A stretch of 64,000 nucleotides of DNA, taken from positions 1,071,311-1,135,310 of the forward strand of contig CP010424.1 of NCBI GenBank assembly GCA_000830275.1. Direction: 5' to 3'. The DNA is from an archaeon GW2011_AR10 (GTDB lineage Archaea > Iainarchaeota > Iainarchaeia > Iainarchaeales > GW2011-AR10). The notes below the pieces were generated by a model. The model was not told the DNA's origin, ran no database searches, and was given only the letters and a program-made list of their open reading frames with translations. This document shows positions 9,830 to 50,051 of this stretch, piece by piece. Numbering within the stretch: the stretch's first letter is position 1; each line of letters opens with the position of its first letter. Made by a program: the position numbers and the translations under genes.

Positions 9830-11422
9830 ATGGCAAAGCAGATGCTTGCACTGAACCGGATTCTTTCGGAGGTTAGAGAGGGCAGCATTCAGTCTCAGTT
9901 CCAGCTCAACAAGGTGAAAATCCGGGCAGCCAGAAAGTTCGGGTTAAAGCAACTTCCAACAAACGCTGAAATTATTGCTGAAGCATCAGAAGAGGACAGG
10001 CGCGCCTTTCAGAGAATCCTTTCCAGAAAACCTGTTAGAAGCATTTCAGGCGTAACAGTTGTTGCAGTAATGACAAAGCCTTATGGCTGTGTTGCCAAAT
10101 GCATTTACTGCCCTTCCTCTCTTGTGCCAGGCAAAGAAACCCCTAAAAGCTACACTGGCTTTGAGCCTTCAACAAGGCGCGGCATGATGTTCAACTTCAA
10201 CCCGTACAGGATTGTCGAGAACCGGCTGAAGCAGTACAGGGAAATAAACAATTTTTCTCCAAAAATTGAGCTCATACTTCAAGGAGGAACATTCACTGCG
10301 CTGCCTTTTTCTCATCAAAAATATTTTGTAAAGCGCTGCTTTGATGCGGTCCTCGGGAAAACAACAAGCTCTTTGAGTGAAGCGAAGTCACTTGCCGAAC
10401 ACAGCCAAAACCGGGTTGTAGGGTTGACAATCGAAACAAGGCCTGACTGGTGCAAGGAAAAGGAAATAAACCGGATGCTTTCCTATGGCGTAACCAGGGT
10501 TGAGTTAGGGGTGCAAAACCCTGACAATGAAATATACAGGCGCTCAAACAGGGGCCACACAGTTGAGGATGTTGTCGAGTCAACGCAGTTGCTGAAGGAT
10601 TCCTCGCTGAAAGTATTATATCATTTAATGCCAGGCTTGCCAGGCTCAACACCTGAAGCTGATTTGAGAAACTTTAGGAAAGTTTTTTCAGAGCAGGAAT
10701 TCTTGCCTGACATGGTAAAAATTTATCCCTGCCTTGTAATTGATGGCACACCACTTCACAGGTTATGGGAAAAAGGCTTGTTCGAACCGCTTTCAACAGA
10801 GAAAGCAGCAAAGCTTGTTGCAAGGCTTAAAGAGTTTATTCCAAGGTACGTAAGGGTTATGAGAATACAGCGCGACATTCCAAGTAATCTGGTTGCAGGC
10901 GGGGTAAAGAAAACAAATTTGCGGCAGCTAGTGGAAAAAGAGCTTGAAGCCAAAGGAATAAAGTGCAATTGCATTCGCTGCAGGGAAATCGGTTTCAAAA
11001 ACCTAAAGCATAGTGAGGTTGAAGGCCTTGCACCTGAGCTTTTAAGGGAAGACTACAATGCGAGCAAAGGCTCGGAAGTGTTCCTTTCATTTGAAGACAA
11101 GAAAAGCAATGCGTTGTTTGGATTCTGCAGGTTAAGAATTCCGTTCAAGCCGTTCAGAAAAGAAATCACTCCAAAAACCGCCCTCCTAAGGGAGCTGCAC
11201 GTTTACTCCAAGGCACTGGAACTTTCCTTAAAGCCTTCAAATGGAGAGTTCCAGCACAGGGGCTTTGGCCAAAAGCTTGTGTTGGAAGCTGAGAGAATTG
11301 CAAGGGAAGAGTTTGATTGCAACAAGATAGTGGTTATTGCGGGCATCGGCGTGAAGCAATACTACCGCGAAAAAATCGGTTATGCCAATGAAGGCGTTTA
11401 TGTTTCGAAATCCCTGCAATAA
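9830..11422 (+). CDS. elp3: Elongator complex protein 3 homolog (radical SAM + GNAT tRNA-modification enzyme)
   Basis: CVAKCIYCP (CxxxCxxC radical SAM cluster), a C-terminal QHRGFGQKLVLEAE acetyltransferase motif, 530 aa. Confidence 0.85.
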   Translation: MAKQMLALNRILSEVREGSIQSQFQLNKVKIRAARKFGLKQLPTNAEIIAEASEEDRRAFQRILSRKPVRSISGVTVVAVMTKPYGCVAKCIYCPSSLVPGKETPKSYTGFEPSTRRGMMFNFNPYRIVENRLKQYREINNFSPKIELILQGGTFTALPFSHQKYFVKRCFDAVLGKTTSSLSEAKSLAEHSQNRVVGLTIETRPDWCKEKEINRMLSYGVTRVELGVQNPDNEIYRRSNRGHTVEDVVESTQLLKDSSLKVLYHLMPGLPGSTPEADLRNFRKVFSEQEFLPDMVKIYPCLVIDGTPLHRLWEKGLFEPLSTEKAAKLVARLKEFIPRYVRVMRIQRDIPSNLVAGGVKKTNLRQLVEKELEAKGIKCNCIRCREIGFKNLKHSEVEGLAPELLREDYNASKGSEVFLSFEDKKSNALFGFCRLRIPFKPFRKEITPKTALLRELHVYSKALELSLKPSNGEFQHRGFGQKLVLEAERIAREEFDCNKIVVIAGIGVKQYYREKIGYANEGVYVSKSLQ

Positions 11423-11765: not shown

Positions 11766-11874
11766 TAGGCTAATTTCAATCAGGTAATTCCACTGTTTTC
11801 AAACAGTGGTTAGGTAAAATTGCCCAATATATACTATATACTTTATAATGATATAAGGTGTAGAAGAGAATCTT

Positions 11875-12222
11875 ATGGCTAAATCGTTTATGGCTACCCT
11901 GGGGGTTGGAAAAGGGACCTGGGGCCACGTCGCAAGGCTTATTACTGAAGAGCAATTCAAAAAGATTGTCCTAATTTCAACAGAGTGGGGTAAAGAGAAT
12001 TTCGCCCCCCAAAAGGAATGCGACTGGGTTATTGTAAACAATAGGGCTGGATTTGAGGTAATAAAAGATGAAATCAAGGGAAAGCTGCCTGACGGGGAAA
12101 TATGCGTTTCACTAGTCAGCGGTTCAGGCAAAGAGCATATGGCACTGTTGGCAGCCTTAAAGGAATCAAACAAACCATTTCAAGTGGTAACTTTAACCGG
12201 TAACGGAGTAAAGTACTACTGA
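11875..12222 (+). CDS. Hypothetical protein
   Basis: 115-aa ORF, 2 bp upstream of the next gene (probable operon). Confidence 0.4.
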   Translation: MAKSFMATLGVGKGTWGHVARLITEEQFKKIVLISTEWGKENFAPQKECDWVIVNNRAGFEVIKDEIKGKLPDGEICVSLVSGSGKEHMALLAALKESNKPFQVVTLTGNGVKYY

Positions 12223-12223
12223 A

Positions 12224-12601
12224 GTGAGCCTGATGGCAGACATTTTTCTTCCCTTAGCAGTTTTGGTAATTCTAATCCTGGCAGTGCTTGTTTTAGTGCT
12301 TTTCAGGCAGAACCATTTTCTCCGCCAGCAAATTGAGGGACTGGTTTTTCAGAAAACGAGCCAGTCAGTAAAGTACGGGAAGCTCACAGAGCAGTTCATT
12401 CCCTTCACGCAGGATTTTCCTTTTGACGTGCAGCAGTTCCGCTTTATTGGAAACCCGATTGATGGAATAGTGTTTGACGAGGACAGCATATATTTTTGTG
12501 AATTCAAGACCGCGTCCTCACAGCTTAATGCAAGGCAGAAGAAAGTAAAAGAGCTTGTTGAAGAAAAGAAGGTTAAGTGGTTCGAGTTCAGGCTCCGTTA
12601 A
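12224..12601 (+). CDS. Membrane-anchored PD-(D/E)xK nuclease-like protein
   Basis: N-terminal TM helix, then PIDGIVFDEDSIYFCEFK (PD...D/E-x-K restriction-endonuclease-like core). Confidence 0.4.
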   Translation: MSLMADIFLPLAVLVILILAVLVLVLFRQNHFLRQQIEGLVFQKTSQSVKYGKLTEQFIPFTQDFPFDVQQFRFIGNPIDGIVFDEDSIYFCEFKTASSQLNARQKKVKELVEEKKVKWFEFRLR

Positions 12602-12609
12602 GGCTGCTG

Positions 12610-13653
12610 CTACCATCTCACTGCGTATCGTAGCAGTGCAGCAACCCCGCCTATGCCCTTAAGCTTTCTGCCGGCATCGTTTTTTACTGAAACAATATGG
12701 ATTTCTCCGTTGAGCTTTTCAGCCCTTTCAAGAAGCTCCTCTGCTTTTTTCCTGTTGGAGAGCAGAAACTCGTCGCTTACAAGCAAAGCCGAAATTGCCC
12801 CTGAATCAATTGCGTTCTCCGTTTCTTTCAGGCTTGCTGCTGCAAGGCCTTTTCCTTTTCCAAGCTCCTCGAAAACCCTTTCCACTAGTTTGGTTTCTTT
12901 TGCAAGCTGTGTTTCCTCCACAATTCTCTCCAAAATGCCTGACTTCAGCAGCTCGTTCAAACCACTTATTCCCACTGAATTGATTTGCTCAAAGAAAGCA
13001 TTAAGCTTAATTCCTTTTTCTTCCAAGTATTTTTCCAGATTGTTTTTTGTGAAGCCCGGCCCAGCAAAAACAATTTTTTCAGGCTTGATTTCTTCAATCT
13101 TGCTTATAATTTTCTCAAAGTAGTGGTTTTCTTTTTCCTCGTCCTTAAACCGTTTTCCATGCTTTCCTGCGATCAGCCTTCCTCTAGGCTCAAAATCAAA
13201 CTCTTTCAGCAAAGCGAATTCTGCTTCTTCGTCATCCAACACTACTAGAAGCGTTTTAACTCTTCCTGCAGCGCGCTTTGCTTTATGGAGTCTTTCAATC
13301 TGGTAGTTCTTCAACGCTTTTTTTTTCACTGTTATTTCCTTTCCCGGCACAACTTCTAGTGCGTGATGTGATTTAAGCTCCACATACTCTTCCGGTTTTC
13401 CTGTCATAACCACTCCAAGCACTCTGAGGTTTCCAGAGCTTTCATGGAATTCAATCCTTTCAGCGTCCAATTCCACAAAAATGTTTTCCTTTGAGGCCTT
13501 CAAGCCTTCTTCCTTTGGCTTTACTTTTCTTTCAGCCTTGCCGCTGACCACATCATGTTCTTCAATTAACCTTTCAAGGTGCCACAAATCATCCAGGTTG
13601 TCTGGCACAACTTTGAAGGAATTATTCTTTTGGTCAATTTTAAGGATTCGCAT
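12610..13653 (-). CDS. pelA: Pelota/Dom34 ribosome-rescue factor
   Basis: MRILKIDQKNNSFKVVPDNLDDLWHL N-terminus; eRF1-like domain architecture; 347 aa. Confidence 0.8.
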   Translation of the reverse strand: MRILKIDQKNNSFKVVPDNLDDLWHLERLIEEHDVVSGKAERKVKPKEEGLKASKENIFVELDAERIEFHESSGNLRVLGVVMTGKPEEYVELKSHHALEVVPGKEITVKKKALKNYQIERLHKAKRAAGRVKTLLVVLDDEEAEFALLKEFDFEPRGRLIAGKHGKRFKDEEKENHYFEKIISKIEEIKPEKIVFAGPGFTKNNLEKYLEEKGIKLNAFFEQINSVGISGLNELLKSGILERIVEETQLAKETKLVERVFEELGKGKGLAAASLKETENAIDSGAISALLVSDEFLLSNRKKAEELLERAEKLNGEIHIVSVKNDAGRKLKGIGGVAALLRYAVRW

Positions 13654-25960: not shown

Positions 25961-27124
25961 TCACACCCTCGGTTGGACAAATTTCAGGTAAACAAGCAAA
26001 AGCGCAATAACAAGCGGCATTATCAGCGCGTAAAAGATTATTATAAACTGTGGAGTAAGCTGGAATGCCTGTGAAAAGTTTACTCCTAATGGTGCATTGG
26101 TTACTGCGCCAATTATTGCTACAAAAACAGGCAGAACAATTGCACCGAAAATGAATATTACCCCAAAAAAATTCATTTTTTCCGCGAAGTCCCTTATCTT
26201 CATTCTCAGCTCGAATGAAACGTCCTCAGCGATTTCCCCCATAACGTTTGAAAGGTTGCCGCCGGTTTTAAGCGCCCTGATGACGTGGAACAAGGCGCTC
26301 CTCAGCGCTCTTGACTGGGTTCTCAGCGCGAAGTGCCTTAACGCGTCTTTAGTGTCAGTGCCCTCCTCTATCTCATTAATTGTTCTTGAAAACTCGTCTG
26401 ATAAAACCCCGTAATCTGACTGCGCTATTGCCTGCAGCGCTTTGTAGAGGCCTATTCCTGCCTTTAATTCTGTTGCCATGTGCCTTAATGCGAAAGGAAG
26501 TTCAACACTCATTTCGTCGCCTCTTCTTTGAGCAATTGTCTTGGGTATAATCATCACAAGTATGAGCGTAATGAAGAAGAACAGGATTCCAATCAACAGC
26601 GCGCTCCAGATGGGCCATGCCCATAAAAACGAGACTATTGCCCCTATGACCATTCCAAAAATCAGGCCTATTGCGGCTGAAGCAACGCTTAATGCAAGGT
26701 ATTGCTGCGCTGAAAACTTCATGTTTGCGCTGTAAAGGTAGTATGCTAACTCTTTTGCTATTGGAAACCTCCTGAGGTTTCGGGTTAGTGGCTTGAATAG
26801 GAACTGGAATGAGAGGTAAAAGTTTCCAAGCTGCCTTATTATTGGGGATCTAAACTCTTTCAGCTCTTCAACAGGCTGAACGTTTATTTTTGCTGCTTCC
26901 CCTTCCGCTATTATGCCGCGCAGCTCGCTAAGCCTTCCCCCAACTTCTTCAAATTCAATGCCTTGCTCGCGGTACTTTTTCTTCATTTTGGCGACTATTT
27001 TTTCAACCTGCTCCAGGTCAACGGTTTCCGGCTCGGCTAATTCATCCTTTCCAGGGGCTTTTATGTCTGCCTTCTTGCTCTCAATTTTTTTCCTTAAGTC
27101 ATCAATTGAAGGCACGCTTTCCAC
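25961..27124 (-). CDS. TadC/FlaJ-like pilus assembly membrane protein (T2SS-F domain), part 2
   Basis: ELPFALRHMATELKAGIGLYKALQAIAQ T2SSF-like domain. Together with the previous gene this resembles a split two-domain FlaJ/TadC. Confidence 0.6.
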   Translation of the reverse strand: MESVPSIDDLRKKIESKKADIKAPGKDELAEPETVDLEQVEKIVAKMKKKYREQGIEFEEVGGRLSELRGIIAEGEAAKINVQPVEELKEFRSPIIRQLGNFYLSFQFLFKPLTRNLRRFPIAKELAYYLYSANMKFSAQQYLALSVASAAIGLIFGMVIGAIVSFLWAWPIWSALLIGILFFFITLILVMIIPKTIAQRRGDEMSVELPFALRHMATELKAGIGLYKALQAIAQSDYGVLSDEFSRTINEIEEGTDTKDALRHFALRTQSRALRSALFHVIRALKTGGNLSNVMGEIAEDVSFELRMKIRDFAEKMNFFGVIFIFGAIVLPVFVAIIGAVTNAPLGVNFSQAFQLTPQFIIIFYALIMPLVIALLLVYLKFVQPRV

Positions 27125-30100
27125 CCCTGCTCAGCAGGTATTTTTCGCATTCAGTTGAAACCCTGTTTATGTCCCTTACATCAGTTTCAACCAACTTCTT
27201 TAACACTTTTTCCCTTTCCTTAATTTCCGCTTCAATCTGTTTTCTTTGCATTCCTGTAAACCTTTCAAGCACTTTGAGGTAATTAACTGGCGCACTTGTT
27301 CTCTTTAAACTGTCCGTTGCGGCATCATACTCGAATATTGCCTGGGTTTTTGTTTTTCCTTCAAGCACGCCGTATACCTCAGAAATTTCTGTAATCCTCC
27401 TGATAGTACCCTTCTTTTTGTCGTGTAGCCTGTGCTCAACAATTATGAAGTCAAGGCCGCTCATCATTATTTCCGGCACGTTCATCGGGGGAGAAGTAAT
27501 CCTTACAATTGTTTCCTCCGGCGAATTAGCGTGAACTGTGCCAAGGCAGTTTGAAACAAATAGGCCGTTTGCAATGTAATTGTGGTTGTCTTTTACAGTC
27601 AAGTCATACATATAACCATTGAACTCTTCTTCTTCAATTTTCACAATTTCCTCAAATCGGAAATCTGAATTGACTAGCATTAAAACCTCTTTGCCCATTG
27701 AAGTGTTAGCGGTAATATTTGCGATTTTTTCTAGCTGGTTTCTTGAAGGGCTTCTTTTATTTGTTTCATATGCCTCAATGGTTGACCTTGTCTGCGTTCC
27801 CATTAATGAAGCCAGTTCTGTTTGCGTCATTGAAGCATCATTTCTTGCTTTTCTAATCAGTGCAGAAATTTTTGGGAACAAATCTTTTGCATTTTTTGAA
27901 CTTAAAATTAATTTTTCAAGTTTTTTACTTTTTTCAGCATGCCCAAATCCTATTTTGTTTGCAAATTTTTCTAAATTGTCCTTTCCATAAATTGATACCC
28001 TATAATATGGCCCAATTTTTCCTTTTCCGTCCCTTTCTTGGGTGTTTAGCGATGAATGAATGCCAAATCTTTGAATTATCATTGGAAGCTTTCTGGCTAT
28101 CCTGGGGTTGGAGGTTGAAAACTGAATTGATTGAGAGTGAAGATTTACGTGAGCATCTGCATCAAATAAGCCCCTGATAAGTTTTCCAAGCCCTGATTGG
28201 CTCGCGGTCAAAACTTTTTTATTTAATTCAAAAATTTTTGTCTTGTTTCCAAGAGGGATGTCATATTCGTTTACGATTTTTTTGACCAATTTTTTGTCAT
28301 AAACATTTACTCTTGAAAAGCCACCGAAATCTTTGATTGAAATCTTATTTTTTGTAACTTCCCCAATTCCCCTTTCAAAACTTTGTATAAGGGACGGTTC
28401 TTTGTTAACAAACTGGATTCCTTCGCTGTGGATGTGCCCGTCTCCGTAAATTAAACCCATAAGATACGGTTTAATTATTTCTTCACTTGCATTAATTGGA
28501 ATTTGCTTTGGAAACGCAATAAAGTCCCCTTTTTTTGCTTCTTCTGCATTTATTTCCTGAATGCCATTGTTTATTCTGTAAATGGGGTGGTCTTCAGTTA
28601 ACCTAATTTCTTTGCCTGACTTGGTTTTAATTCTTCTAATTTTTTGTCTTGCATTTTTTCTCCAAACCCTTATTACTGGGTTATCCTCAATTTTAAACGT
28701 TTTTTTGTTGAAGCTTGGGACAAATATTTCCCCCTTAATATCAACAAATTCAAAGTCCCCTTCTTTTAAGGGATTTTTTTCCATGAATTTATTTTCAACA
28801 AAATTTCCTATTTCCTCAATGTTGCCATTAGAAAACTGAATTAATGTATCGCCTGTTGTTGCACCATCATGGCCCGTATTCATTGCAGTGAACAATGAGA
28901 ATGCCTCATCGTGCCTTATTTCTCCTACAATTATCCTGTCAGGCCTCATCCTCAAAGAGTTCTTGGTTAAAATGTCAAGGCTTATTTCTCCTGTTCCTTC
29001 AATGCCCGGCGGCCTTCCCTCAAACCTTATCCAGTGCTTGAGCGGAAGATTCAATTCAGCAGTGTCTTCGATTGAAATAATTCTCTCGTGCCTTGGAATA
29101 AATGATGCCAGCACGTTCAATGTTGTTGTTTTGCCGCTTCCAGTGCCGCCTGAAATGACAATGTTTGCAGGCTTCACTCCCATGCCTTCAACGCAAGCCC
29201 ACAGAAAAGCTGAGGCTTCCAGTGTCACAGTGTTCATTTTAATCAAATCAATCATGGAGAAAGGGTCTCCCCTAAATTTCCTGATAGTTAAAGTTGCACC
29301 GCTGACTGAAGCCGGAGGGATTGTTGCGTTGACCCTGCTGCCGTCAGGCAGCCTTGCATCCAGAAGAGGAGCCGAAATGTCAATCCTTCTTCCCACTTGC
29401 CGTGCAATCCTGTTAACCAAGTCAATTATTTCTTGGTCAGAGAAAAACTCAATGTTTGTTGTCATCATCTCATACTGCCTGTGGAAAACGTAAACAGGCT
29501 GGCCTTGGCCGATAACCATTATTTCCTCAAGTTTGTCGTCGTTAACCAGCGGGTCAATCATGCCGTAGCCAACCATTTCTCTTACAACTGCATCAGCGTA
29601 AAAGTCAAACCTTGAGGCAGGAATGTTTAATTCAGGCGAGCTGCGTATTATCTCCATTATTCGCTGATAGTAAACGTTTCTTTTCTGCTCCGGGTCCCTG
29701 ATTTTGTAAGGAGTGATGCTGATAATTCTTGTTGCCGCTTCCTTTATGGTGTTAATGATTGTTTTCTCTGTGCCAGCGGAGCGCGGCACCGGAGTCCAAT
29801 AGTATAGCAGGGGCTCCCCCTCAACCCTGTAAATTTTTATGTTCCCATAAGAGTCTATTTCCTCCTTTTCTGCCTGCTCCATTTGTTTTTCGGTTTTGGA
29901 TTTGGCTGTCTTAACTGGAAGGCGCTGTTCAGTTGCAGGGGCAACTTCCAAAGCCTCTTGTTCTGTTTCCTTAACTGCTTCGGGTTTTTTTCTGGAGCTC
30001 GGTTCCTTTACTGATTCCCTTGGAATAACAATTTTTGTAAAAATTTTTGCAGGCTTAAACGGTTCTATTTCAGCAGGGGCTGCTTTGCGTTGAGCTTCTC

Positions 30101-30257
30101 CCTCCGGCATCCTTTTGAGGGCCTCAATGATTTTCTGCTTCTTTTGTTCCTTCTCTTCCTCGGCTTTTGAGTCAGCAACGCCTGCCTTTTTCTTCTTCAT
30201 TTGCTCAATCAAGTCACCCATATAGCTAGGCATGGCTAATCCATTATGAAGACGCAT
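27102..30257 (-). CDS. VirB11/FlaI/KlbA-type secretion ATPase interrupted by an intein
   Basis: Walker A ISGGTGSGKTTTLNVL. The His-box reads TGHDG|A...N|CLGTVHANS, where the paralog (6245-7816) has the uninterrupted TGHQGSMGTLHSNS. Long charged N-terminal extension. Confidence 0.8.
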   Translation of the reverse strand: MRLHNGLAMPSYMGDLIEQMKKKKAGVADSKAEEEKEQKKQKIIEALKRMPEGEAQRKAAPAEIEPFKPAKIFTKIVIPRESVKEPSSRKKPEAVKETEQEALEVAPATEQRLPVKTAKSKTEKQMEQAEKEEIDSYGNIKIYRVEGEPLLYYWTPVPRSAGTEKTIINTIKEAATRIISITPYKIRDPEQKRNVYYQRIMEIIRSSPELNIPASRFDFYADAVVREMVGYGMIDPLVNDDKLEEIMVIGQGQPVYVFHRQYEMMTTNIEFFSDQEIIDLVNRIARQVGRRIDISAPLLDARLPDGSRVNATIPPASVSGATLTIRKFRGDPFSMIDLIKMNTVTLEASAFLWACVEGMGVKPANIVISGGTGSGKTTTLNVLASFIPRHERIISIEDTAELNLPLKHWIRFEGRPPGIEGTGEISLDILTKNSLRMRPDRIIVGEIRHDEAFSLFTAMNTGHDGATTGDTLIQFSNGNIEEIGNFVENKFMEKNPLKEGDFEFVDIKGEIFVPSFNKKTFKIEDNPVIRVWRKNARQKIRRIKTKSGKEIRLTEDHPIYRINNGIQEINAEEAKKGDFIAFPKQIPINASEEIIKPYLMGLIYGDGHIHSEGIQFVNKEPSLIQSFERGIGEVTKNKISIKDFGGFSRVNVYDKKLVKKIVNEYDIPLGNKTKIFELNKKVLTASQSGLGKLIRGLFDADAHVNLHSQSIQFSTSNPRIARKLPMIIQRFGIHSSLNTQERDGKGKIGPYYRVSIYGKDNLEKFANKIGFGHAEKSKKLEKLILSSKNAKDLFPKISALIRKARNDASMTQTELASLMGTQTRSTIEAYETNKRSPSRNQLEKIANITANTSMGKEVLMLVNSDFRFEEIVKIEEEEFNGYMYDLTVKDNHNYIANGLFVSNCLGTVHANSPEETIVRITSPPMNVPEIMMSGLDFIIVEHRLHDKKKGTIRRITEISEVYGVLEGKTKTQAIFEYDAATDSLKRTSAPVNYLKVLERFTGMQRKQIEAEIKEREKVLKKLVETDVRDINRVSTECEKYLLSRGGKRAFN
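27549..28862 (-). mobile_element. Intein (438 aa, Ala1-type like Mja KlbA) with LAGLIDADG homing endonuclease
   Basis: Inserted exactly between G465 and C904. Starts with Ala, ends ...NHNYIANGLFVSN, with C as +1. Two LAGLIDADG motifs (LMGLIYGDGHI, LIRGLFDADAHV) plus an HTH-like segment. Confidence 0.75.
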
Positions 30258-30363: not shown

Positions 30364-31494
30364 TCATTTAGTGGCTTGCGCTTCCTGTTTTCCCATGAAG
30401 CCGTCAAGCACATTTAGGTTAAAGTTGAACAGGAAAACGTAAACAGGAGTTAAAACTAGCAGAATCACATACTGCAGTGCCACAAAAATTGCAATCAAAA
30501 TCGTGGCTCCACCCAGTGCAACAACAATTAATAGCGCCATATTTCCCTGCAGCACCGGGTAAAGCAGAACGCCTAGTGCGATCACTGCAATCATAAGAAA
30601 AACCGTGAAAATTGCCACAAAAAGCCCTATGATAAAGGCTAGTCCCATCAAAACAAGCAAGAACGCTATCTGCAATGCAATCAAAATGACTAGCTCTACG
30701 GGTTTGCTGAAACCTATTAGAATTCCCTGCAATAGTGCGCTGAAAGCATTAATGTTTTTCCTGTACATCAAATAAACGCCGAACTGCCCCAAAAAATAAT
30801 TCACCGCTGCAAAGAATACCAATCCGATAATTCCTACAACTGCCAGGAGCACAAGCGTGCTCGAGTCCTTCAAGAAAGCAAGCTGCGGCAGAACGCTTTC
30901 AAGCCCCAAGCCAGGTGAAAATAGATTCCAGAAAAAGCCAATCAATGCAAGAACCAAGAAAACAAGAAACGGAAGCATGGCAAGAAAAATCATTGTTTCA
31001 AGCAGTGAGAGGCTGAATCCCTTTGAAATGTTTGATGGAATTGATCGAACGCTTACTTCGCCTGTTTCAGCGCCTCTTATTGCGGAAAACATTGCTGCGT
31101 TCCCCAAAATCCTTAAAAAAAACATAATGACGAACAGCACTATTAACACAACGATTATCCAGAAAATTATTCCTTCAAAATTAATTTCCGAATCATTAAG
31201 CACTGCTAAAGCGCTTGCAATTGTATCGACATTGTTTTCTTCCTGTGCAACTGAAGAGCTGATGCCATTTTCGAGGCCGCCTGATGGTCTTTCCTGCAGC
31301 ACATCAAAAAAACCTGAAAAATCTCCTGAACCAAAATTGAAGTTTGCCCCACTATAGAAGCCGCTGCCAGTGAAAAGAGTGAAAACAAGGAGAATGAAAG
31401 CAAATCGCAGCCACCTTCCAACCATGTTCGGTTTGTTAAAGAAGGCTTCTGTCTGCTTGAAGCTTTTTCCCAGTGCATCAGTTGCGATCGGCAT
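30364..31494 (-). CDS. Polytopic membrane protein, hypothetical (end of pilus locus)
   Basis: ~8 TM helices, Gly/Phe-rich loop. Confidence 0.4.
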   Translation of the reverse strand: MPIATDALGKSFKQTEAFFNKPNMVGRWLRFAFILLVFTLFTGSGFYSGANFNFGSGDFSGFFDVLQERPSGGLENGISSSVAQEENNVDTIASALAVLNDSEINFEGIIFWIIVVLIVLFVIMFFLRILGNAAMFSAIRGAETGEVSVRSIPSNISKGFSLSLLETMIFLAMLPFLVFLVLALIGFFWNLFSPGLGLESVLPQLAFLKDSSTLVLLAVVGIIGLVFFAAVNYFLGQFGVYLMYRKNINAFSALLQGILIGFSKPVELVILIALQIAFLLVLMGLAFIIGLFVAIFTVFLMIAVIALGVLLYPVLQGNMALLIVVALGGATILIAIFVALQYVILLVLTPVYVFLFNFNLNVLDGFMGKQEAQATK

Positions 31495-31526
31495 TTTCCT
31501 TAGAATAGATTGGTGGTTTTGCCTAT

Positions 31527-33257
31527 TTATTTCTTTTCATCTATTTCCTTCCGCAGTTTTTCAACAAAACCATCAATTTTTTCGTTAAAGCGAACTTTTC
31601 CGTTCCGCTCCCTAACCGCAATTGTTTTATTGTTTTTCTCTTTCTCTCCCACGATTACAATGTAGTTTACTTTCTGCATCTGCGCGTTTCTCACCTTGTA
31701 GGAAACAGTTTCATTGCTGAGGTCAAGTTTGCTCCTAATCCCTGATTCCACAAGCTTTCTGTGCACTTCCTCCGCGTACTTGTTGAAATTTTCCCCCACA
31801 GCTAAAATCCTAACCTGCTCCGGGCTGAGCCACAAGGGAAACGCTCCAGCAAAGTGCTCGATTAGTATTCCGATGAATCTCTCCATTGAGCCATAAACAA
31901 CCCTGTGAAGCATTATTGGCATTTCTCGCTCATCTTTTTCGTTAATGAAAAACAGCTCAAACTTTTCAGGCATTAAAAAATCAACCTGGATTGTTGCGCA
32001 CTGCCATGTCCTGCCAAGAGAGTCCTTTATGTGGAAATCAATTTTTGGACCATAGAATGCCCCATCCCCTTCATTCACTTTGAACTTTGCTTTCCTTTTC
32101 TTTAAGGTGTTCTCTAGTGCAGCAGTGGCCTTTTTCCACGCTTCATCCGAGCCCATCGCGTTCTCCGGCTTTGTGCTAAGCTCTATGTGGTAAGAGAAAC
32201 CGCATTTGCCGTAAACAAAGTCAATTAACTCAATTACTTTTCCAATCTCTTCCTCTATCTGCTTCAGAGAGCAAAAAATGTGTGCATCATCCTGCGTGAA
32301 CTTCCTCACCCTGAACAGGCCGTTCAGGACACCGCTTAATTCATGCCTGTGCACAATTCCGAATTCAGTTATCCTTTGTGGAAGCTCCCTGTAAGAATGC
32401 CGCGAGTTCTTGTATATGAGGATGTGGCCAGGGCAATTCATTGGCTTAATGGCGTAACCCTCTTCATCTATTTCAGTGAAGTACATGTTTTCCTTGTAGT
32501 GGTCCCAGTGCCCTGACTTCTTCCAGAGTTCTTCCTTCATTATTATTGGCGTTGTCACTTCAACGTAGCCGCGCTTGAACTGCTCTTTCCTCAAAAAGCC
32601 CTCTAGCTCGTTCCAGACAATTTTTCCTTTTGGGTGAAAGAAAACTGTGCCAGGCGCTTCCTCCTGCATCGAGAAAAGGTCAAGCTCTTTGCCCAGCCTC
32701 AAGTGGTTTCTTTTCTCGGCTTTCTCTACTCTCTTGACCCACTCTTCGAGCATGCTTTTTTCCGGGAAAGCAATGCCATAAATTCTCTGCAGCATAGGAT
32801 TTTTTTCGCTGCCCCTCCAGTAGGCCCCGGATGTCTTAACAAGCTTCACTGCCTTGATTTTGCCCGTGCTTTCAACGTGGCCCCCCTTGCATAAATCCAG
32901 AAACTTCCCTTGGCTGAAAACAGTGAGCTTTTTTCCCTCACCTGCAAACTCGTTTATTAGCTCTTGCTTGAATTGGTTGCCCTTAAACAACTGTAAGGCT
33001 TCTTCTTTGCTGATTTCTTTGCCTACAATTTTGTCATTTCTCTTAATAATTTCACTCATTTTCTGCTCTATTTTTTTCAAATCATCAGGAGTGAATGGTT
33101 TTTTCACATCAAAGTCATAGTAGAAGCCTTCCTCTATCGGCGGCCCAATAGTTGGTTTTGCATCAGGGAAAAGGCTTGTAACCGCTTCAGCCAAAACATG
33201 TGAGGCAGTATGCCACAACTGTTGCCTGTATTCTTGCTCGGACCATTTTCCAGCCAT
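31527..33257 (-). CDS. thrS: Threonyl-tRNA synthetase
   Basis: N-terminal editing-domain motif WHTASHVLAEAV (HxxxH); class II core with FRVRKFTQDDAHIF; C-terminal anticodon-binding domain. Confidence 0.8.
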   Translation of the reverse strand: MAGKWSEQEYRQQLWHTASHVLAEAVTSLFPDAKPTIGPPIEEGFYYDFDVKKPFTPDDLKKIEQKMSEIIKRNDKIVGKEISKEEALQLFKGNQFKQELINEFAGEGKKLTVFSQGKFLDLCKGGHVESTGKIKAVKLVKTSGAYWRGSEKNPMLQRIYGIAFPEKSMLEEWVKRVEKAEKRNHLRLGKELDLFSMQEEAPGTVFFHPKGKIVWNELEGFLRKEQFKRGYVEVTTPIIMKEELWKKSGHWDHYKENMYFTEIDEEGYAIKPMNCPGHILIYKNSRHSYRELPQRITEFGIVHRHELSGVLNGLFRVRKFTQDDAHIFCSLKQIEEEIGKVIELIDFVYGKCGFSYHIELSTKPENAMGSDEAWKKATAALENTLKKRKAKFKVNEGDGAFYGPKIDFHIKDSLGRTWQCATIQVDFLMPEKFELFFINEKDEREMPIMLHRVVYGSMERFIGILIEHFAGAFPLWLSPEQVRILAVGENFNKYAEEVHRKLVESGIRSKLDLSNETVSYKVRNAQMQKVNYIVIVGEKEKNNKTIAVRERNGKVRFNEKIDGFVEKLRKEIDEKK

Positions 33258-42582: not shown

Positions 42583-43239
42583 ATGAATGCACGCATTTTA
42601 CTTGGCTTTGCTTTCCTTGTCCTTGTTTTGGTGCTCTTGTCTGGTTGCCCGAAGCCCCCATTGGAGGATGATGACTCTGGCCAGATTGAGCCGGAACCAG
42701 AGCCGGAAGTTGACTTATGCGAAAACATTTCATGCAATGACAAATGCGAGAACACCACGCTTTTTTCAGGCGGCAGCTGCGTTGAAGGGAGCTGCATTTA
42801 CGCTGCCACAGTTGAGAATGCTGCTGAATGCGGTTACGAAGAGAGAGCCCTGCAGCTTGACACGCAGTTCAGGAGCTGCAGCTGGGATTTCTACTCCAAA
42901 AACTTTGACTTCTTTTTCACGATAAAGAATGTCGGCGAAGTTCCTGTTCCAGAAAACGCTTCAATCTGGATTATAGGCGAGGGCATTTCCAAAAAAACTT
43001 ATGACATAACCAACAGGGAGTACGGCATCAACCAGATTCTGTGGGGTGAAAGGAACTGGAGCGCATACCCTTATCAGGGTAACAGGTGGCGGGTAACAGA
43101 TTACGCGGAATTCCAACAATTTGGCTTCAAGCTGGTTTACTGCGAGGGCATAAACGTTTTCATACAGCAATGCAGCGAAGAAAACGGAACAGTGTTATTT
43201 GAAGGCAATACGGGAGAATTGTGTGAGGTAAGAGAGTAA
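42583..43239 (+). CDS. Secreted Cys-rich lipoprotein, hypothetical
   Basis: Signal peptide with lipobox-like LLSGC, an acidic linker, and multiple Cys. Confidence 0.45.
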   Translation: MNARILLGFAFLVLVLVLLSGCPKPPLEDDDSGQIEPEPEPEVDLCENISCNDKCENTTLFSGGSCVEGSCIYAATVENAAECGYEERALQLDTQFRSCSWDFYSKNFDFFFTIKNVGEVPVPENASIWIIGEGISKKTYDITNREYGINQILWGERNWSAYPYQGNRWRVTDYAEFQQFGFKLVYCEGINVFIQQCSEENGTVLFEGNTGELCEVRE

Positions 43240-43243
43240 TCCT

Positions 43244-45430
43244 TTATCTGACATAAGTCGGCTTAATTGTTGTTGTGGTTGTTGCCCTGAATTCTTGGTA
43301 TGATTCCAGAACCTCTTTTCTTATTGATGGAAGAATCTTTGCCATTGCTTCAACCAAGTGAGACTTTTTAACTTCTGTTGCCTTCATGTTGCTTTCCTGA
43401 AGGCTTATCAGTGCGGCCTCCCTAATCATGCCCTCAATGTCTGCTCCGCTATAGCCCTCGGTTTTCTTTGCTATTTCCTCTAGTGATACGTCTTTTGCTA
43501 GTGGCACGCTTTTGCTGTGCACTCTAAGAATTGAGAGCCTTGCCTTTTCATCCGGTGCAGGAATCAAGATCATCTTATCAACTCTGCCGGGCCTCATAAG
43601 CGCTGGGTCAATAAGGTCAGGCCGGTTTGTCGCAGCAATGAATATCACATCCTTCAGTCTTTCAATGCCATCAAGCTCTGTCAGCAGCTGGTTCACAACT
43701 CTTTCTCCAACCCCTGAATCAGTGCTTTGACCGCGTGTTGAAGCAATTGCATCGATTTCGTCAAAGAAAATGATTGCAGGCGAAACCTGCCTTGCCCTGT
43801 GAAAAATTTTTCTGATTCCTTTTTCGCTTTCTCCAACCCACATGCTAATGAGCTGTGGTCCCTTGATTGAAATAAAGTTTGCCTCGCTTTCAGTTGCCAC
43901 TGCTTTTGCCAAAAGAGTTTTGCCGCAACCCGGAGGACCGTACAGCAGTACACCGCTTGGCGGATTGATTCCCAGCCTTTTGAATGATTCACTGTGCTTT
44001 AAAGGCCACTCTACTGCCTGCTTTAATTCCCTTTTCACGTTCTCTAAACCGCCAATGTCCTTCCACCTAATGTTTGGCACCTCAATTGTCACTTCCCTTA
44101 AAGCGCTCGGCTGCACGTCCTTCAATGCTTCCTGGAAATCGGTTTTGTTCACTTCCAGTGATTCAAGCACTTCAGTGGGAATCTTGTCCTCATCTAAATC
44201 TATTTTTGGAAGGTAACGGTGCAGGGCTTTCATTGCAGCCTCTTTCACGAGTGCTTCAATGTCCGCGCCAACAAACCCGTGCGTGACAGACGCAAGGTAA
44301 TCCAAGTCAACATTTTTTGCCAACGGCATTCCCCTCGAATGAATCTGAATGATTTGCTTTCTTCCGCCCTTGGTTGGAACGCCTATCTCAATTTCCCTGT
44401 CAAATCTTCCAGGCCTTCTAAGCGCCTCATCCAAGGAGTTAACCCTGTTGGTTGCAGCAATAACAATTACGTTGCCTCTTGCCTCCATGCCATCCATTGC
44501 TGAAAGAATCTGTGCAACAACCCTTCTTTCAACTTCCCCTATTACTTCATCCCTTTTTGGGGCAATTGAGTCTATTTCATCAAAGAAAATAATGCTTGGA
44601 GCATTCTTTTCAGCTTCTTTGAAAACTTCCCGGACTCTTTCCTCTGCTTCCCCAACAAATTTTGACATAATGCTTGGAGAATTTATTGAAATGAAATGTG
44701 CCTGGGTTTCAGTTGCCACTGCTTTTGCGAGAAGGGTTTTTCCTGTTCCGGGAGGGCCGTGAAGCAGAACGCCCTTCGGCGGGTTAATGCCTAGTTTCCT
44801 GAAGATTTCAGGGTGCTTCATTGGAAGCTCTATCATATCCTTGATTTTTTGGATTTGCTCTTTCAAGCCGCCAATGTCCTCGTAAGCAATTTTTGGAATT
44901 CCAGCAAGGGAATCCTTAACAGGCTCTTCCTTCAGTACAAACTGGGTGAAATCAGTTATTTTAACAATGCCGCGCGGGGTTGTGTCAACCACCTGGTAAA
45001 CAAAGCCGGAGCCAAAAACACTGATCCAAACGTTGTCTCCTTTGGTTAATGGCCTTCCAATGAAATTCTTTTTCAGTATCCTGTCATAGCCTGAAGCAAT
45101 TATTCTGACTTCCTGTGTTGGAGCAAGCACAACCCTTTTGGCTTCAAAAAAATTTGCTTTTCTTACCGCAACCTTTTCTCCTAGCGCGCTCCCCGAATTA
45201 TGCCTTATAAAGTTGTCCATCCGAATTATGCCCTTACCTTCATCCTCTGCTCTTGCAGGCCAGATAACAGCAGCAGTTCTTTTCGGGCCCTCAATTTCAA
45301 CTATGTCACCAGAGGTTACGCCGAGTTCTTCTTTTGTTCTCTTGTCCAGCGTGATAATGTTCCTTCCCACATGGCTTGGATCAGGGTCCTCAACCCTCAA
45401 TATTGCGTCCTTTTTTTTGTTTGAAAACAT
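43244..45430 (-). CDS. cdc48: Cdc48/VCP-like AAA+ ATPase
   Basis: N-domain plus two AAA modules ([15 protein letters not shown] and [15 protein letters not shown]), each with DEID Walker B and an SRH region. Confidence 0.9.
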
Positions 45431-45472
45431 TCCATCGCCTTAACAAATCATTTTGAACCAAACGTTAATAAG

Positions 45473-46285
45473 CTATTCCATTTGAACCGTTAAGTCGCCG
45501 TTAGGCAGCATTGAAATTATTTCATCCAATTCAAAAACGTTTTTCGCGCCGGCTTTTTCCTCAAACAATTTCCTGAGCTGCTTCGCGGTTTCACCCTTTG
45601 ACTGCTGGCCCTGTTCAACCTTAAAGAAAAACGCTGAATTCTTTTTCACCGCGCTTAAAGGCCCGGAAATTACTTTCCATTCACCGTTCTCTTTCATTGC
45701 CCCTATTGCAAACTCTAATTTTGTTTTCCTGAACCAGTTTCGTTTTCCGTAAATCATGAAGGCTCCTGCTCCAAGAGCCTCTCCCGCCGGGGCTTTCTTG
45801 CTCACTTGCTCCGGCATCACGCTGTAAACATCTGCTGTTGCAAGCTTCTGCTTCCACGCCCTTGAAAAAACCGCTGCAAAAACCGATGCTTCCTCCAAGC
45901 TTTTCTTCGGAGCAGAATTTTTCTCTGTTTTAAGAATTGTGTGAGGTGCGCCAAAAATTTCTGCGTGAAAGTATAGGTCGCCATCTTCCATGTGTTTTTT
46001 CACCAAAGCTTCGTTGCTGCCTGCATCCCTGCCTGCAACAACAAGCAAGCCATCGCTTGTCCTGAACCAGTGGAACCTCTCAAACCATTGCCTCTTTTTT
46101 TTCCTCGTGATTTCCCTGCTTTCAGCCTTCAACGCATTCTTTTCTTCAGCCTCTGCTATTTTTCCCTCAATTAGCGGGATTGCCTTGCTGAGGCCAGCAA
46201 GTTTTTTTTTGGCCTTCTTTGATTTCTGGTAGTAGAGGTCAGCGTTCTGCTGCAGCGATTTCTTCAAATCAATTGCCAGTTGCAT
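45473..46285 (-). CDS. NFACT-R (DUF814) domain protein, Rqc2/NEMF/FbpA-family C-terminal half
   Basis: WFERFHWFRTSDGLLVVAGRDAGSNEALVKKHMEDGDLYFHAEIFGAPHTIL matches the DUF814 core (FhwF.s..G..vvvGRna.eNe.L.kk....D.wfHa....GsHvil). Only 270 aa, so it lacks the NFACT-N domain. Lies 42 bp upstream of cdc48. Confidence 0.7.
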   Translation of the reverse strand: MQLAIDLKKSLQQNADLYYQKSKKAKKKLAGLSKAIPLIEGKIAEAEEKNALKAESREITRKKKRQWFERFHWFRTSDGLLVVAGRDAGSNEALVKKHMEDGDLYFHAEIFGAPHTILKTEKNSAPKKSLEEASVFAAVFSRAWKQKLATADVYSVMPEQVSKKAPAGEALGAGAFMIYGKRNWFRKTKLEFAIGAMKENGEWKVISGPLSAVKKNSAFFFKVEQGQQSKGETAKQLRKLFEEKAGAKNVFELDEIISMLPNGDLTVQME

Positions 46286-46824
46286 TACTCCAGCCCCTGC
46301 ATGTGCTTTACGATTTCCAGCACAGACTTGGTGCGGGAAGCGTTTTTGTGCAGTGGTTCAGTTGCATAGAATATTTCTTTGTCCTTTATCAGGTTGAATA
46401 TGTTTGGAATTGACTCATAATACTTTTTCAATGAATCCTGGTGGTATGATTCAATGTCCGTGTAAATGTGTGAGGCCATCATGTTCCAGTTGCCTGACCC
46501 GATTATGGCGCTTAGCCTGTACAAATGCGGGTCACTTGAAACTACGCCCAAGAATTCATTAAACAACTCTTTTTGGCTTGTGTCTATCTGGAGCATTACT
46601 ATGACTTCAAGCTTGTATCCTAGTTTTCTGAAATCAATTTTTGGCCCAAATCCGCTCAGCACCCCCTCCCTTGAAAGAAAATCCAGCGAACTCTTGATTG
46701 TTGCCTTGTGGTAACCGGTCAGCCGCTTTATGTGGCGAACATTAGGTGTTACAGCATTTTTCTGCAGGAGCGCTTCCAGAATCTTTACCCTGATCTCATC
46801 GTTAACCTTCTTGTTAATGGCCAT
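46285..46824 (-). CDS. HTH transcriptional regulator (Lrp/TrmB-like wHTH), hypothetical
   Basis: N-terminal wHTH-like segment VRHIKRLTGYHKATIKSSLDFLSREGVL. Confidence 0.35.
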   Translation of the reverse strand: MAINKKVNDEIRVKILEALLQKNAVTPNVRHIKRLTGYHKATIKSSLDFLSREGVLSGFGPKIDFRKLGYKLEVIVMLQIDTSQKELFNEFLGVVSSDPHLYRLSAIIGSGNWNMMASHIYTDIESYHQDSLKKYYESIPNIFNLIKDKEIFYATEPLHKNASRTKSVLEIVKHMQGLE

Positions 46825-47112
46825 TAAAAAACCCCAGCATATTCAATATGGGCTGGCATTCATTTTTAAATGTAATTTTTGTTACATCTATTTTGTCTAA
46901 AATTATAAAAAGAAGGACATCGTCAATATTATTGTAAATTAGAATTGGGGGGATCCAATCCTAAAAAATAAAAAAAATAAAAATGTAGAACGGGGTTAGG
47001 CTCACCAAGCTGATTTGGAATCCTGTATGTAGCCCCGTTCTCACCTCTAATATTTTCGGTGGGGTTTGAGGTGGTAATTCAAATCGTATTGTTAGGGCTA
47101 ATTTTTGTCGGC

Positions 47113-49484: not shown

Positions 49485-50051
49485 TCAGGTTTTCTGGATT
49501 TTTTTCAGCTTATCCCAGTAAAGCACCAGCGCTATAATTACTACTGCTAACGCAACCAGTGAAATGCTCAACAAAAAGCTTGCGTCTTCTCCGGCAGAAA
49601 CCGGCGAAGCCAAGGGCGCGGCCCCTTTCACTGTTTCTTCAGCGATTCCAATTTCTTCAAAGGCCCTGCCATCACTGGCATTGGAAGTTAGTGCTGGTTG
49701 CTGCAATAATCCAATTGAGCCCAGCAACATCAGCAGCACTCCAGCGAACGCAACCGAGGCAACGCTTAACACAATCAGCACTGTTGTCTCTGTTTCCTTT
49801 GCTTTCACAAGCTGCTTTCCCTTTCGCGTCAAGGAATAGTACTTCCACTTCCTTCCCTCATCTATTAGTTCAACGAGCCTGTTTTCCAGCAGAACTCCTA
49901 AATGCTGCTTCGTGCTTGGGCTGCTCAATGAAAGCTTTTTTGCCAGTTCCGTCAATGTATGGTTTCTTTCATCCAGCAGCTTCAAGATTTTTACTCGGTT
50001 CTCGGAGGAAAGGGACTTGAATTCTGGGGCTGAAAGCGTTATCTCCGGCAT
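49485..50051 (-). CDS. ArsR-family wHTH regulator with C-terminal transmembrane segments
   Basis: ENRVKILKLLDERNHTLTELAKKLSLSSPSTKQHL HTH, followed by two hydrophobic helices. Confidence 0.55.
   Translation of the reverse strand: MPEITLSAPEFKSLSSENRVKILKLLDERNHTLTELAKKLSLSSPSTKQHLGVLLENRLVELIDEGRKWKYYSLTRKGKQLVKAKETETTVLIVLSVASVAFAGVLLMLLGSIGLLQQPALTSNASDGRAFEEIGIAEETVKGAAPLASPVSAGEDASFLLSISLVALAVVIIALVLYWDKLKKIQKT

Follow-up and report, generated by a model that had tools for sequence, protein, structure and literature searches.

A probable C-terminal half of a recurrently split RqcH in a phylum-wide Lrp-like/C-half/cdc48 gene cluster of Iainarchaeota

The gene cluster and its NFACT-R protein

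The stretch of DNA analysed here comprises 64,000 nt from the archaeon GW2011_AR10 (contig CP010424.1, positions 1,071,311 to 1,135,310; the window in what follows), a member of the Iainarchaeota, and contains a gene for a 270-aa protein with an NFACT-R domain which is flanked by cdc48 and by a gene for a putative Lrp/AsnC-type regulator (Table 1). In the initial annotation the protein was described as a truncated, minimal relative of Rqc2/NEMF whose proximity to cdc48 might reflect a simplified archaeal system of ribosome-associated quality control (RQC). Our analysis led to a different view, namely that the gene most likely encodes the C-terminal half (C-half) of a recurrently split archaeal RqcH and belongs to a gene cluster found throughout the phylum. 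The local arrangement is confirmed by the coordinates: the NFACT-R gene and cdc48 lie on the same strand, with cdc48 located downstream at a distance of 42 nt. Overlooked initially was the 179-aa gene which overlaps the start of the NFACT-R gene, its TAA stop codon sharing one base with the ATG of the latter (TAATG). The 728-aa protein is Cdc48, as judged from a TIGR01243 score of 1067 bits (cut-off 803) and from the presence of CDC48_N, CDC48_2, two AAA domains, and lid domains (AAA_lid_3) according to Pfam, and the window copy of its gene is uninterrupted. Pelota, which had been invoked as a further component of the pathway encoded in the window, is genuine (open reading frame [ORF] 12610-13653, minus strand; TIGR00111 243 bits, cut-off 178); however, it is not linked to the cluster but lies 32 kb away amid unrelated housekeeping genes, its neighbours including genes for an Elp3-like radical SAM protein, the CCA-adding enzyme, and Rad50.

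Table 1. Coordinates of the gene cluster and of the regions encoding the parts of the NFACT-R protein
Feature	Position in window	Strand	Basis or remark
AT-rich intergenic region, topA to 179-aa gene	46825..47112	minus	288 nt; putative promoter region
179-aa gene, Lrp/AsnC-type	46285..46824	minus	first gene of cluster
270-aa gene, NFACT-R protein	45473..46285	minus	ORF
Last M-domain strand (MQLAIDLKKS) and second long coiled-coil helix, aa 1-62	46100..46285	minus	AlphaFold (AF2), alignments
NFACT-R domain, aa 66-180	45746..46090	minus	PF05670, AF2, Foldseek
His107 codon, motif YFHAE	45965..45967	minus	translation
C-terminal alpha/beta domain, NFACT-C type, aa 183-268	45482..45739	minus	NCBIfam, Foldseek
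Spacer, 270-aa gene to cdc48	45431..45472	minus	42 nt
cdc48, 728 aa	43244..45430	minus	N domain + D1 + D2

The best matches of the 270-aa protein are found in the NFACT/RqcH family, as presumed initially, and on this point Pfam, NCBIfam, profile comparisons with NEMF, Rqc2 and RqcH, and Foldseek agree. Pfam NFACT-R_1 (PF05670) matches aa 71-180 with an E value of 7.1e-34 and 117 bits (cut-off 29.8). The NCBIfam model RqcH_arch (NF041120) aligns aa 5-265 with positions 381-642 of 645; the score of 331.5 bits stays under the full-length cut-off of 400, and the front 380 positions, which correspond to NFACT-N, HhH, and the first coiled-coil helix, are missing. The protein thus lacks NFACT-N, as had been stated, the alignment beginning only at model position 381. 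A weak match of Pfam NFACT_N to aa 2-52 (E 0.0013) covers model positions 370-420 of 456, which represent the coiled-coil end. A profile of the family aligns with human NEMF residues 461-652 (E 6.6e-48) and also with residues 505-683 of yeast Rqc2 and 361-530 of Bacillus subtilis RqcH, from which it follows that the last strand of the small M domain, the domain that sits at the coiled-coil tip, forms the start of the protein.

The AF2 model of the protein (pLDDT 87.4) consists of a short N-terminal coil, a 47-residue helix (aa 11-57), the NFACT-R domain, and a C-terminal alpha/beta domain, with pLDDT values above 90 across most of NFACT-R and of about 70-77 near aa 161-180. Only one long helix and one terminal strand are present in place of a two-helix coiled coil with an M domain at its tip. 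Hence, of the NFACT-R core and the coiled coil that had been assigned to the protein, the former is well supported while the latter is represented by only one of its two helices. In a Foldseek search the top matches were NEMF (9gy4_Z) and Rqc2 (8aaf_a) with query-normalised TM scores of 0.63-0.67 over 326-392 columns. Bacterial RqcH reached TM scores of 0.37-0.39 with its NFACT-R part only, and the NFACT-R region matched that of RqcH, FBPS, and CCDC25. The C-terminal domain is of the NFACT-C type common to archaeal and eukaryotic family members; this call is based on NCBIfam and fold comparison, as Pfam NFACT-C gave no match at E <= 0.01. In sum, the second coiled-coil helix, NFACT-R, and the C-terminal domain connect the window protein with archaeal RqcH (NF041120, e.g. 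Q8U137), bacterial RqcH (itself without the C-terminal domain), NEMF, and Rqc2, and in comparison with full-length RqcH the polypeptide is devoid of NFACT-N, HhH, the first coiled-coil helix, and the first M-domain strands.

The absence of the N-terminal 380 model positions and the score under the NCBIfam cut-off could be taken to mean that a once full-length gene is decaying, or that assembly or gene calling produced an artefact. We attach a next to negligible probability to this explanation, which is effectively refuted by the homologue set, the alignment, and inspection of the upstream region. A homologue search yielded 572 matches with E <= 0.001, and the best 120 of them, labelled Diapherotrites, Iainarchaeum or Micrarchaeota, are all 253-289 aa long and 48-61% identical; intact orthologues of this length number in the hundreds. 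Names of the clusters to which short representatives belong are Diapherotrites or carry no label. In an alignment of 20 homologues (A1), 41 columns are invariant and 18 sequences share the same start methionine, the other two having short extensions. Mean pairwise identity amounts to 60% for residues 1-35 as compared to 62% for the NFACT-R core. Moreover, the identical protein (record QT03_C0001G1238) is encoded on 13 contigs from several sources, and the DNA upstream of the 270-aa gene is occupied by a different conserved gene without NFACT-N remnants.

A recurrent break point in archaeal RqcH

An exhaustive search of cluster representatives retrieved full-length archaeal RqcH proteins (610-720 aa) whose C-terminal 265 residues score nearly as well as members of the family, the best-scoring one being aRqcH of Pyrococcus furiosus (Q8U137). 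The N-terminal halves of the closest full-length proteins were then used in two profile searches with a shared-5-mer prefilter. Besides full-length RqcH, the first search returned many proteins of 350-390 aa with NFACT_N (PF05833) alone, encoded on contigs of up to 654 kb and labelled Woesearchaeota or Nanoarchaeota; the second one returned a further large set of such solo N-halves from Altiarchaeota. Overall, the labels of the two sets (P0286-P0361 and P0404-P0495) are Woese-, Nano-, Pace-, and Altiarchaeota. Solo N-halves terminate with '...EKEGKIVVEL' or a similar sequence ('...G.I.VEL'), and short C-halves of other lineages (alignment A3) start with 'M.I.LD..KS' or 'M.IELDL.KS', like the window protein, which extends from the last M-domain strand to the normal C-terminus according to A1, A3, and comparisons with full-length proteins. 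Taken together, these end and start motifs indicate that N-halves stop where C-halves begin.

Both halves are present on contig Ga0366824_1000001 (locus L171), where genes for a 363-aa N-half (10001-11092) and a 255-aa C-half (12257-13024) are located on one strand 1.2 kb apart and share the same nearest full-length protein, P0169. In other lineages the halves are usually far apart: no C-half was found within 10 kb of any solo N-half locus other than L171, and no N-half in about 30 C-half loci of other lineages. Because matching solo N-halves end where the window protein starts and both halves occur in L171, the 270-aa gene most likely codes for the C-half of an archaeal RqcH that has been split in two, and a minimal NFACT protein is the less likely interpretation. 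The idea of a truncated one-off has to be abandoned, given the same break point in lineages with separate N-halves. The split proteins of other DPANN archaea and of Altiarchaeota resemble the window protein in break point, C-half length, and start motif. When clustered by identity, the window family forms its own group and other short forms group with different full-length proteins; the same break point thus seems to have arisen more than once, a view deduced from distances rather than from a proper tree.

Several peculiarities of the genes surrounding split halves deserve mention. A small gene tends to be located directly upstream of solo NFACT-N genes (L165 6369-6920; L084 9026-9997; L171 9487-10053; L178 3-638). 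In L165-L167 it encodes a V4R protein and overlaps the N-half gene by 1 nt, the N-half P0358 having seeded a group with Altiarchaeota-labelled members; elsewhere it encodes a double-HTH (helix-turn-helix) AsnC-type protein at a distance of 3 nt, or ScpB, overlapping in L171 and 37 nt upstream in L178. Upstream of the C-half in L171 lies a gene (11772-12272) whose product is an ArsR-type HTH protein ending in a hydrophobic tail. The gene overlaps the C-half start by 16 nt, and its product is 38% identical over 74 aa to that of an ArsR-type gene of the window (49485-50051). Coupling of a small HTH gene to the C-half of L171 echoes the Lrp-like/C-half pair of the window, although the HTH families, ArsR-type and Lrp-type, are unrelated. 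P0166 (387 aa, on a 2-kb ENA contig) combines an ScpB-like winged helix, a coiled coil, and NFACT-R in a single ORF, which may have arisen by genuine fusion or by deletion, or may be an artefact of gene calling. A solo N-half of 379 aa is encoded next to the superoperon for proteasome-alpha, SBDS, Rrp4, Rrp41, and Rrp42 in L175 (CABMCB010000090.1, 7436-11140), and a Woesearchaeota-type contig with a solo N-half (L168, 276-4076) carries a gene for the large subunit of ribonucleotide reductase with a LAGLIDADG intein.

If the window protein is one half of RqcH, the other half should be encoded elsewhere in Iainarchaeota, and all searches for it were negative, which speaks, if weakly, against a two-part protein in this phylum. 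A hidden Markov model of seven archaeal N-halves found no NFACT-N among six-frame ORFs of the window and 82 related loci (1.4 Mb), the best E value being 0.33. No N-half was detected within 10 kb of the C-half in 80 Iainarchaeota species, nor in the 7.6 kb past the right end of the window (to the left, the extension was only a 4-kb contig). None of the best 120 matches of each N-half search (240 in total) bears a Diapherotrites or Iainarchaeum label, which is weak evidence given the 5-mer prefilter. The whole-genome shotgun prefixes of N-half records (CAYNLP, CAYOEA, JALTFN, WALD, CAZPXC, CABMCB, JAEMOI) do not overlap with those of the 80 Iainarchaeota assemblies, and no genes that would assign the lineage were found to be shared between N-half contigs and Iainarchaeota. 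Two candidates were dismissed: the 376-aa ORF beside a 576-aa ORF (30364-33257), suspected by analogy with GlmS/N-half loci, encodes a DUF7544 protein next to ThrRS, and the 179-aa protein, considered as a replacement of NFACT-N, is a divergent regulator of the Lrp/AsnC type, unrelated to the ArsR-type gene product of L171.

Gene splitting is a habit of these archaea. This habit, together with the identical break point and the strong conservation of an orphan strand and helix, leads us to favour the existence of an N-half in Iainarchaeota with some confidence.

The alternative to a missing partner is a stand-alone minimal NFACT protein. In this scenario the NFACT-N half was lost, and the C-half alone would bind obstructed 50S subunits via NFACT-R and its helix and either release the chain by means of a histidine or recruit Cdc48 via NFACT-C, making up a tail-less archaeal RQC. 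Precedent comes from the solo NFACT-R protein Jlp2 of yeast, which releases peptides from peptidyl-tRNA on 60S/80S particles in a reaction that needs His44; the authors of that study pose the question of whether the activity extends to other NFACT-R domains with the histidine (10.1101/2025.09.04.673968). His107 of the window protein is the equivalent of Jlp2 H44, and hhalign matched H107, E109, H115, and N91 with H41, D43, H49, and N26, respectively, of CCDC25, whose sequence was checked against PDB 7EOF. H107 does not vary in A1, nor does its counterpart in A3. Jlp2/CCDC25 and the window protein thus have in common an NFACT-R domain without NFACT-N and the cavity residues including the essential histidine, and Foldseek aligned the window protein with CCDC25 at an E value of about 4e-6. 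By contrast, the helix of CCDC25 follows NFACT-R whereas that of the window protein precedes it, an NFACT-C domain is present in addition, and in sequence the window protein is far closer to RqcH/NEMF than to CCDC25 (hhalign probability only 65%).

Also in line with a stand-alone protein are the lack of an N-half near the gene or among the N-half matches listed, the restriction of the cdc48 linkage to Iainarchaeota, and the finding that 50S binding in bacteria does not need NFACT-N and HhH (10.1101/2020.09.03.281279). However, the same break point is found in lineages that have N-halves, the exposed 47-residue helix and the conserved terminal strand point to a partner, and the negative N-half searches were not exhaustive. 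The histidine is no mark of a new activity either: it is likewise present in NEMF and in bacterial RqcH relatives (serine in yeast Rqc2), and its occurrence in full-length RqcH and NEMF means that by itself it does not discriminate between the readings. On balance we regard a stand-alone protein as unlikely, and slightly more so its specific version, in which there is no NFACT-N at all and the C-half docks on the obstructed 50S subunit and acts together with co-expressed Cdc48, either as a Jlp2-like peptidyl-tRNA release factor dependent on the histidine or as an adaptor passing the nascent chain on to Cdc48. If that version were true, it would amount to a tail-less, ubiquitin-free ribosome-associated quality control; should an N-half really be lacking, the best interpretation would be that the protein acts, without tailing, as a release factor or as an adaptor for Cdc48.

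Linkage with cdc48 and an Lrp-type regulator

The 179-aa protein encoded by the first gene of the cluster is a divergent Lrp/AsnC regulator with a winged HTH and a RAM-like domain. A profile of 33 orthologues (A4) matched the AsnC/Lrp structure 8q90_A with an E value of 5.4e-7 (positions 13-132) and LrpA of P. furiosus (1i1g) with an E value of 2.1e-5, the matches spanning the HTH and ligand (RAM-like) domains. NCBIfam matches to LrpA/Lrp are weak (E 4e-6), and the scores of the protein stay under the cut-offs of Pfam and NCBIfam. Its gene immediately precedes the C-half in 70 of 76 informative loci, in 60 of which it overlaps the C-half or is separated from it by at most 100 nt. In relatives, the median distance from topA to the 179-aa gene is 474 nt, far more than the gaps inside the cluster. 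The 288-nt region preceding the gene in the window is likely to be the cluster promoter.

Conservation of the cluster was assessed in a scan with one genome per species which yielded 80 loci, all of the Iainarchaeota type (Candidatus Forterrea belongs to this phylum). In 74 of 77 informative loci cdc48 is located downstream of the C-half on the same strand, the gap being <=200 nt in 60 loci, 201-800 nt in nine (five of them with an inserted gene for an HD-domain protein of about 186 aa), and >800 nt in five; cdc48 is inverted in two further loci and absent from one. The median gap is 92 nt, measured between ends of high-scoring segment pairs, with many gaps of 2-60 nt. The adjacency of NFACT-R gene and cdc48 that was seen initially in one genome is therefore conserved in this phylum, but it does not extend to other lineages (see below).

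Two kinds of variation were observed among the relatives. In five of them (L002, 9291-9851; L016; L027; L034, 10809-11369; L045) the C-half and cdc48 are separated by an inserted gene of 166-187 aa in the same orientation, and the one in L034 encodes an HD domain (Pfam E 1.6e-6). In 19 relatives (L006, L008, L009, L021, L023, L025, L028, L032, L035, L045, L055, L062, L066, L069, L070, L071, L078, L079, L080) the tblastn matches to cdc48 are split by 0.15-1.5 kb of extra in-gene DNA at three recurrent positions, which correspond to residues of about 256, 372-391, and 535 of the window Cdc48. These insertions are probably inteins.

Does this gene order reflect a functional link? The adjacency could simply be inherited without specific coupling, the C-half doing ordinary RqcH work and Cdc48 acting as a general unfoldase. 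We take this possibility seriously, though we stop short of giving it an even chance. In most of the 80 loci the cluster is part of a longer collinear block with topA upstream and an opposite-strand gene for an M50 peptidase downstream, and synteny continues for about 10 kb past cdc48 (AsnC-type gene in 59 of 80 loci, a 247-aa gene in 50, RFC in 33). Because of this embedding, conserved adjacency alone is weak evidence of a functional link. Furthermore, unrelated genes have come to lie between the C-half and cdc48 in 14 relatives, and some loci, L022, L072, L046, and L004 among others, keep the C-half with cdc48 inverted, displaced or missing. Outside the phylum we compared 80 metagenome loci of other lineages, comprising about 30 short C-halves and 48 full-length RqcH genes (47 reach at least 2.5 kb downstream), and none of the 80 contains a gene for a Cdc48/PAN-type ATPase at E <= 1e-20. 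Split RqcH of other lineages thus differs from that of the window in that no cdc48 accompanies the C-halves. The conserved archaeal NFACT neighbourhood reported by Burroughs and Aravind consists of genes for a Mut7-C RNase and AMMECR1 (PMC4075521), as opposed to the Lrp-like/cdc48 cluster to which the window gene belongs. All these observations count against a Cdc48-coupled function, and the linkage carries limited weight, as it goes back to one evolutionary event in a single phylum.

Inherited order accounts less well for the spacing of the genes. The three co-directional genes are separated by median gaps of 18 and 92 nt and are thus much closer to each other than are the flanking pairs, and a promoter-sized gap of about 470 nt precedes them. 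Tight spacing and common orientation behind such a gap suggest that the Lrp-like gene, the C-half, and cdc48 are probably co-transcribed as one unit. In addition, the arrangement survives at only 43-60% protein identity.

Proposed function and relation to known systems

In B. subtilis, RqcH makes only two contacts with the 50S subunit, NFACT-R with 23S helix 38 and the coiled-coil tip with uL11/H44, and NFACT-N and HhH hold the tRNA and are dispensable for 50S binding in bacteria (Crowe-McAuliffe et al., 10.1101/2020.09.03.281279). Since the window protein has retained NFACT-R along with one of the two helices and one strand of the coiled-coil tip, we infer by analogy that the C-half is the 50S-anchoring module. 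Taking into account the data on split RqcH in other lineages we propose that this module joins in trans an N-half of about 370 aa which is encoded by a gene of its own. Each half would contribute its long helix to an antiparallel coiled coil, the N-terminal strand of the C-half would complete the small M-domain sheet, and the paired halves would do the usual job of RqcH on obstructed 50S-peptidyl-tRNA complexes. In Iainarchaeota, the C-half would probably be made together with Cdc48 under the control of the Lrp-type regulator, and Cdc48 may then extract the stalled chain from the subunit or unfold it and direct it to the proteasome. The whole model, i.e. a split-RqcH C-half, assembly in trans, and co-expression with Cdc48, has in our opinion slightly better than even prospects of being correct.

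In the eukaryotic RQC complex, Rqc2/NEMF acts along with Ltn1, Rqc1, and Cdc48-Ufd1-Npl4, and it is the presence of an Rqc2-family protein together with Cdc48 that is reminiscent of the cluster described here. Here, however, the association is only genomic and confined to one phylum, and no gene located at most 10 kb from the cluster encodes a homologue of Ltn1, Rqc1, Ufd1 or Npl4. A eukaryote-like RQC is thus a possible reading that depends on one lineage-specific linkage, and for the Iainarchaeota clade the RQC-Cdc48 idea is plausible but unproven. Archaeal RQC has so far been proposed only from homology and pull-downs (PMC9540759), and in the searchable literature we found no papers on an RqcH split, on NFACT/COG1293 proteins in DPANN archaea or on a cdc48 linkage.

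The cluster bears on the route by which archaea get rid of nascent chains that are trapped on large subunits after splitting of the ribosome. With an anchoring half, Cdc48, and an Lrp-type regulator encoded side by side throughout a clade whose members are without Ltn1-type ubiquitylation, it represents a testable candidate for the missing downstream step. The natural split places the tRNA-recruiting and the ribosome-anchoring parts of RqcH on different polypeptides and thereby provides a ready-made dissection of the protein. Recurrence of the break at the same structural position across several lineages suggests that the halves can reassemble via the coiled coil. Finally, the conserved histidine of NFACT-R makes the family a natural test case for peptide release by His-bearing NFACT-R domains, the question raised by the work on Jlp2.

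Two other genes of the window caught our attention. Between cdc48 and the gene for the M50 peptidase, a 218-aa cysteine-rich protein with a signal-like N-terminus is encoded on the plus strand (42583-43239); it matches no family and has homologues in only about 8 of the 80 Iainarchaeota loci. Located further away on the minus strand (27102-30257) is the gene for a 1051-aa type II/IV secretion ATPase (FlaI/T2SSE-type) with an intein that comprises a LAGLIDADG endonuclease and an HTH_3 domain.

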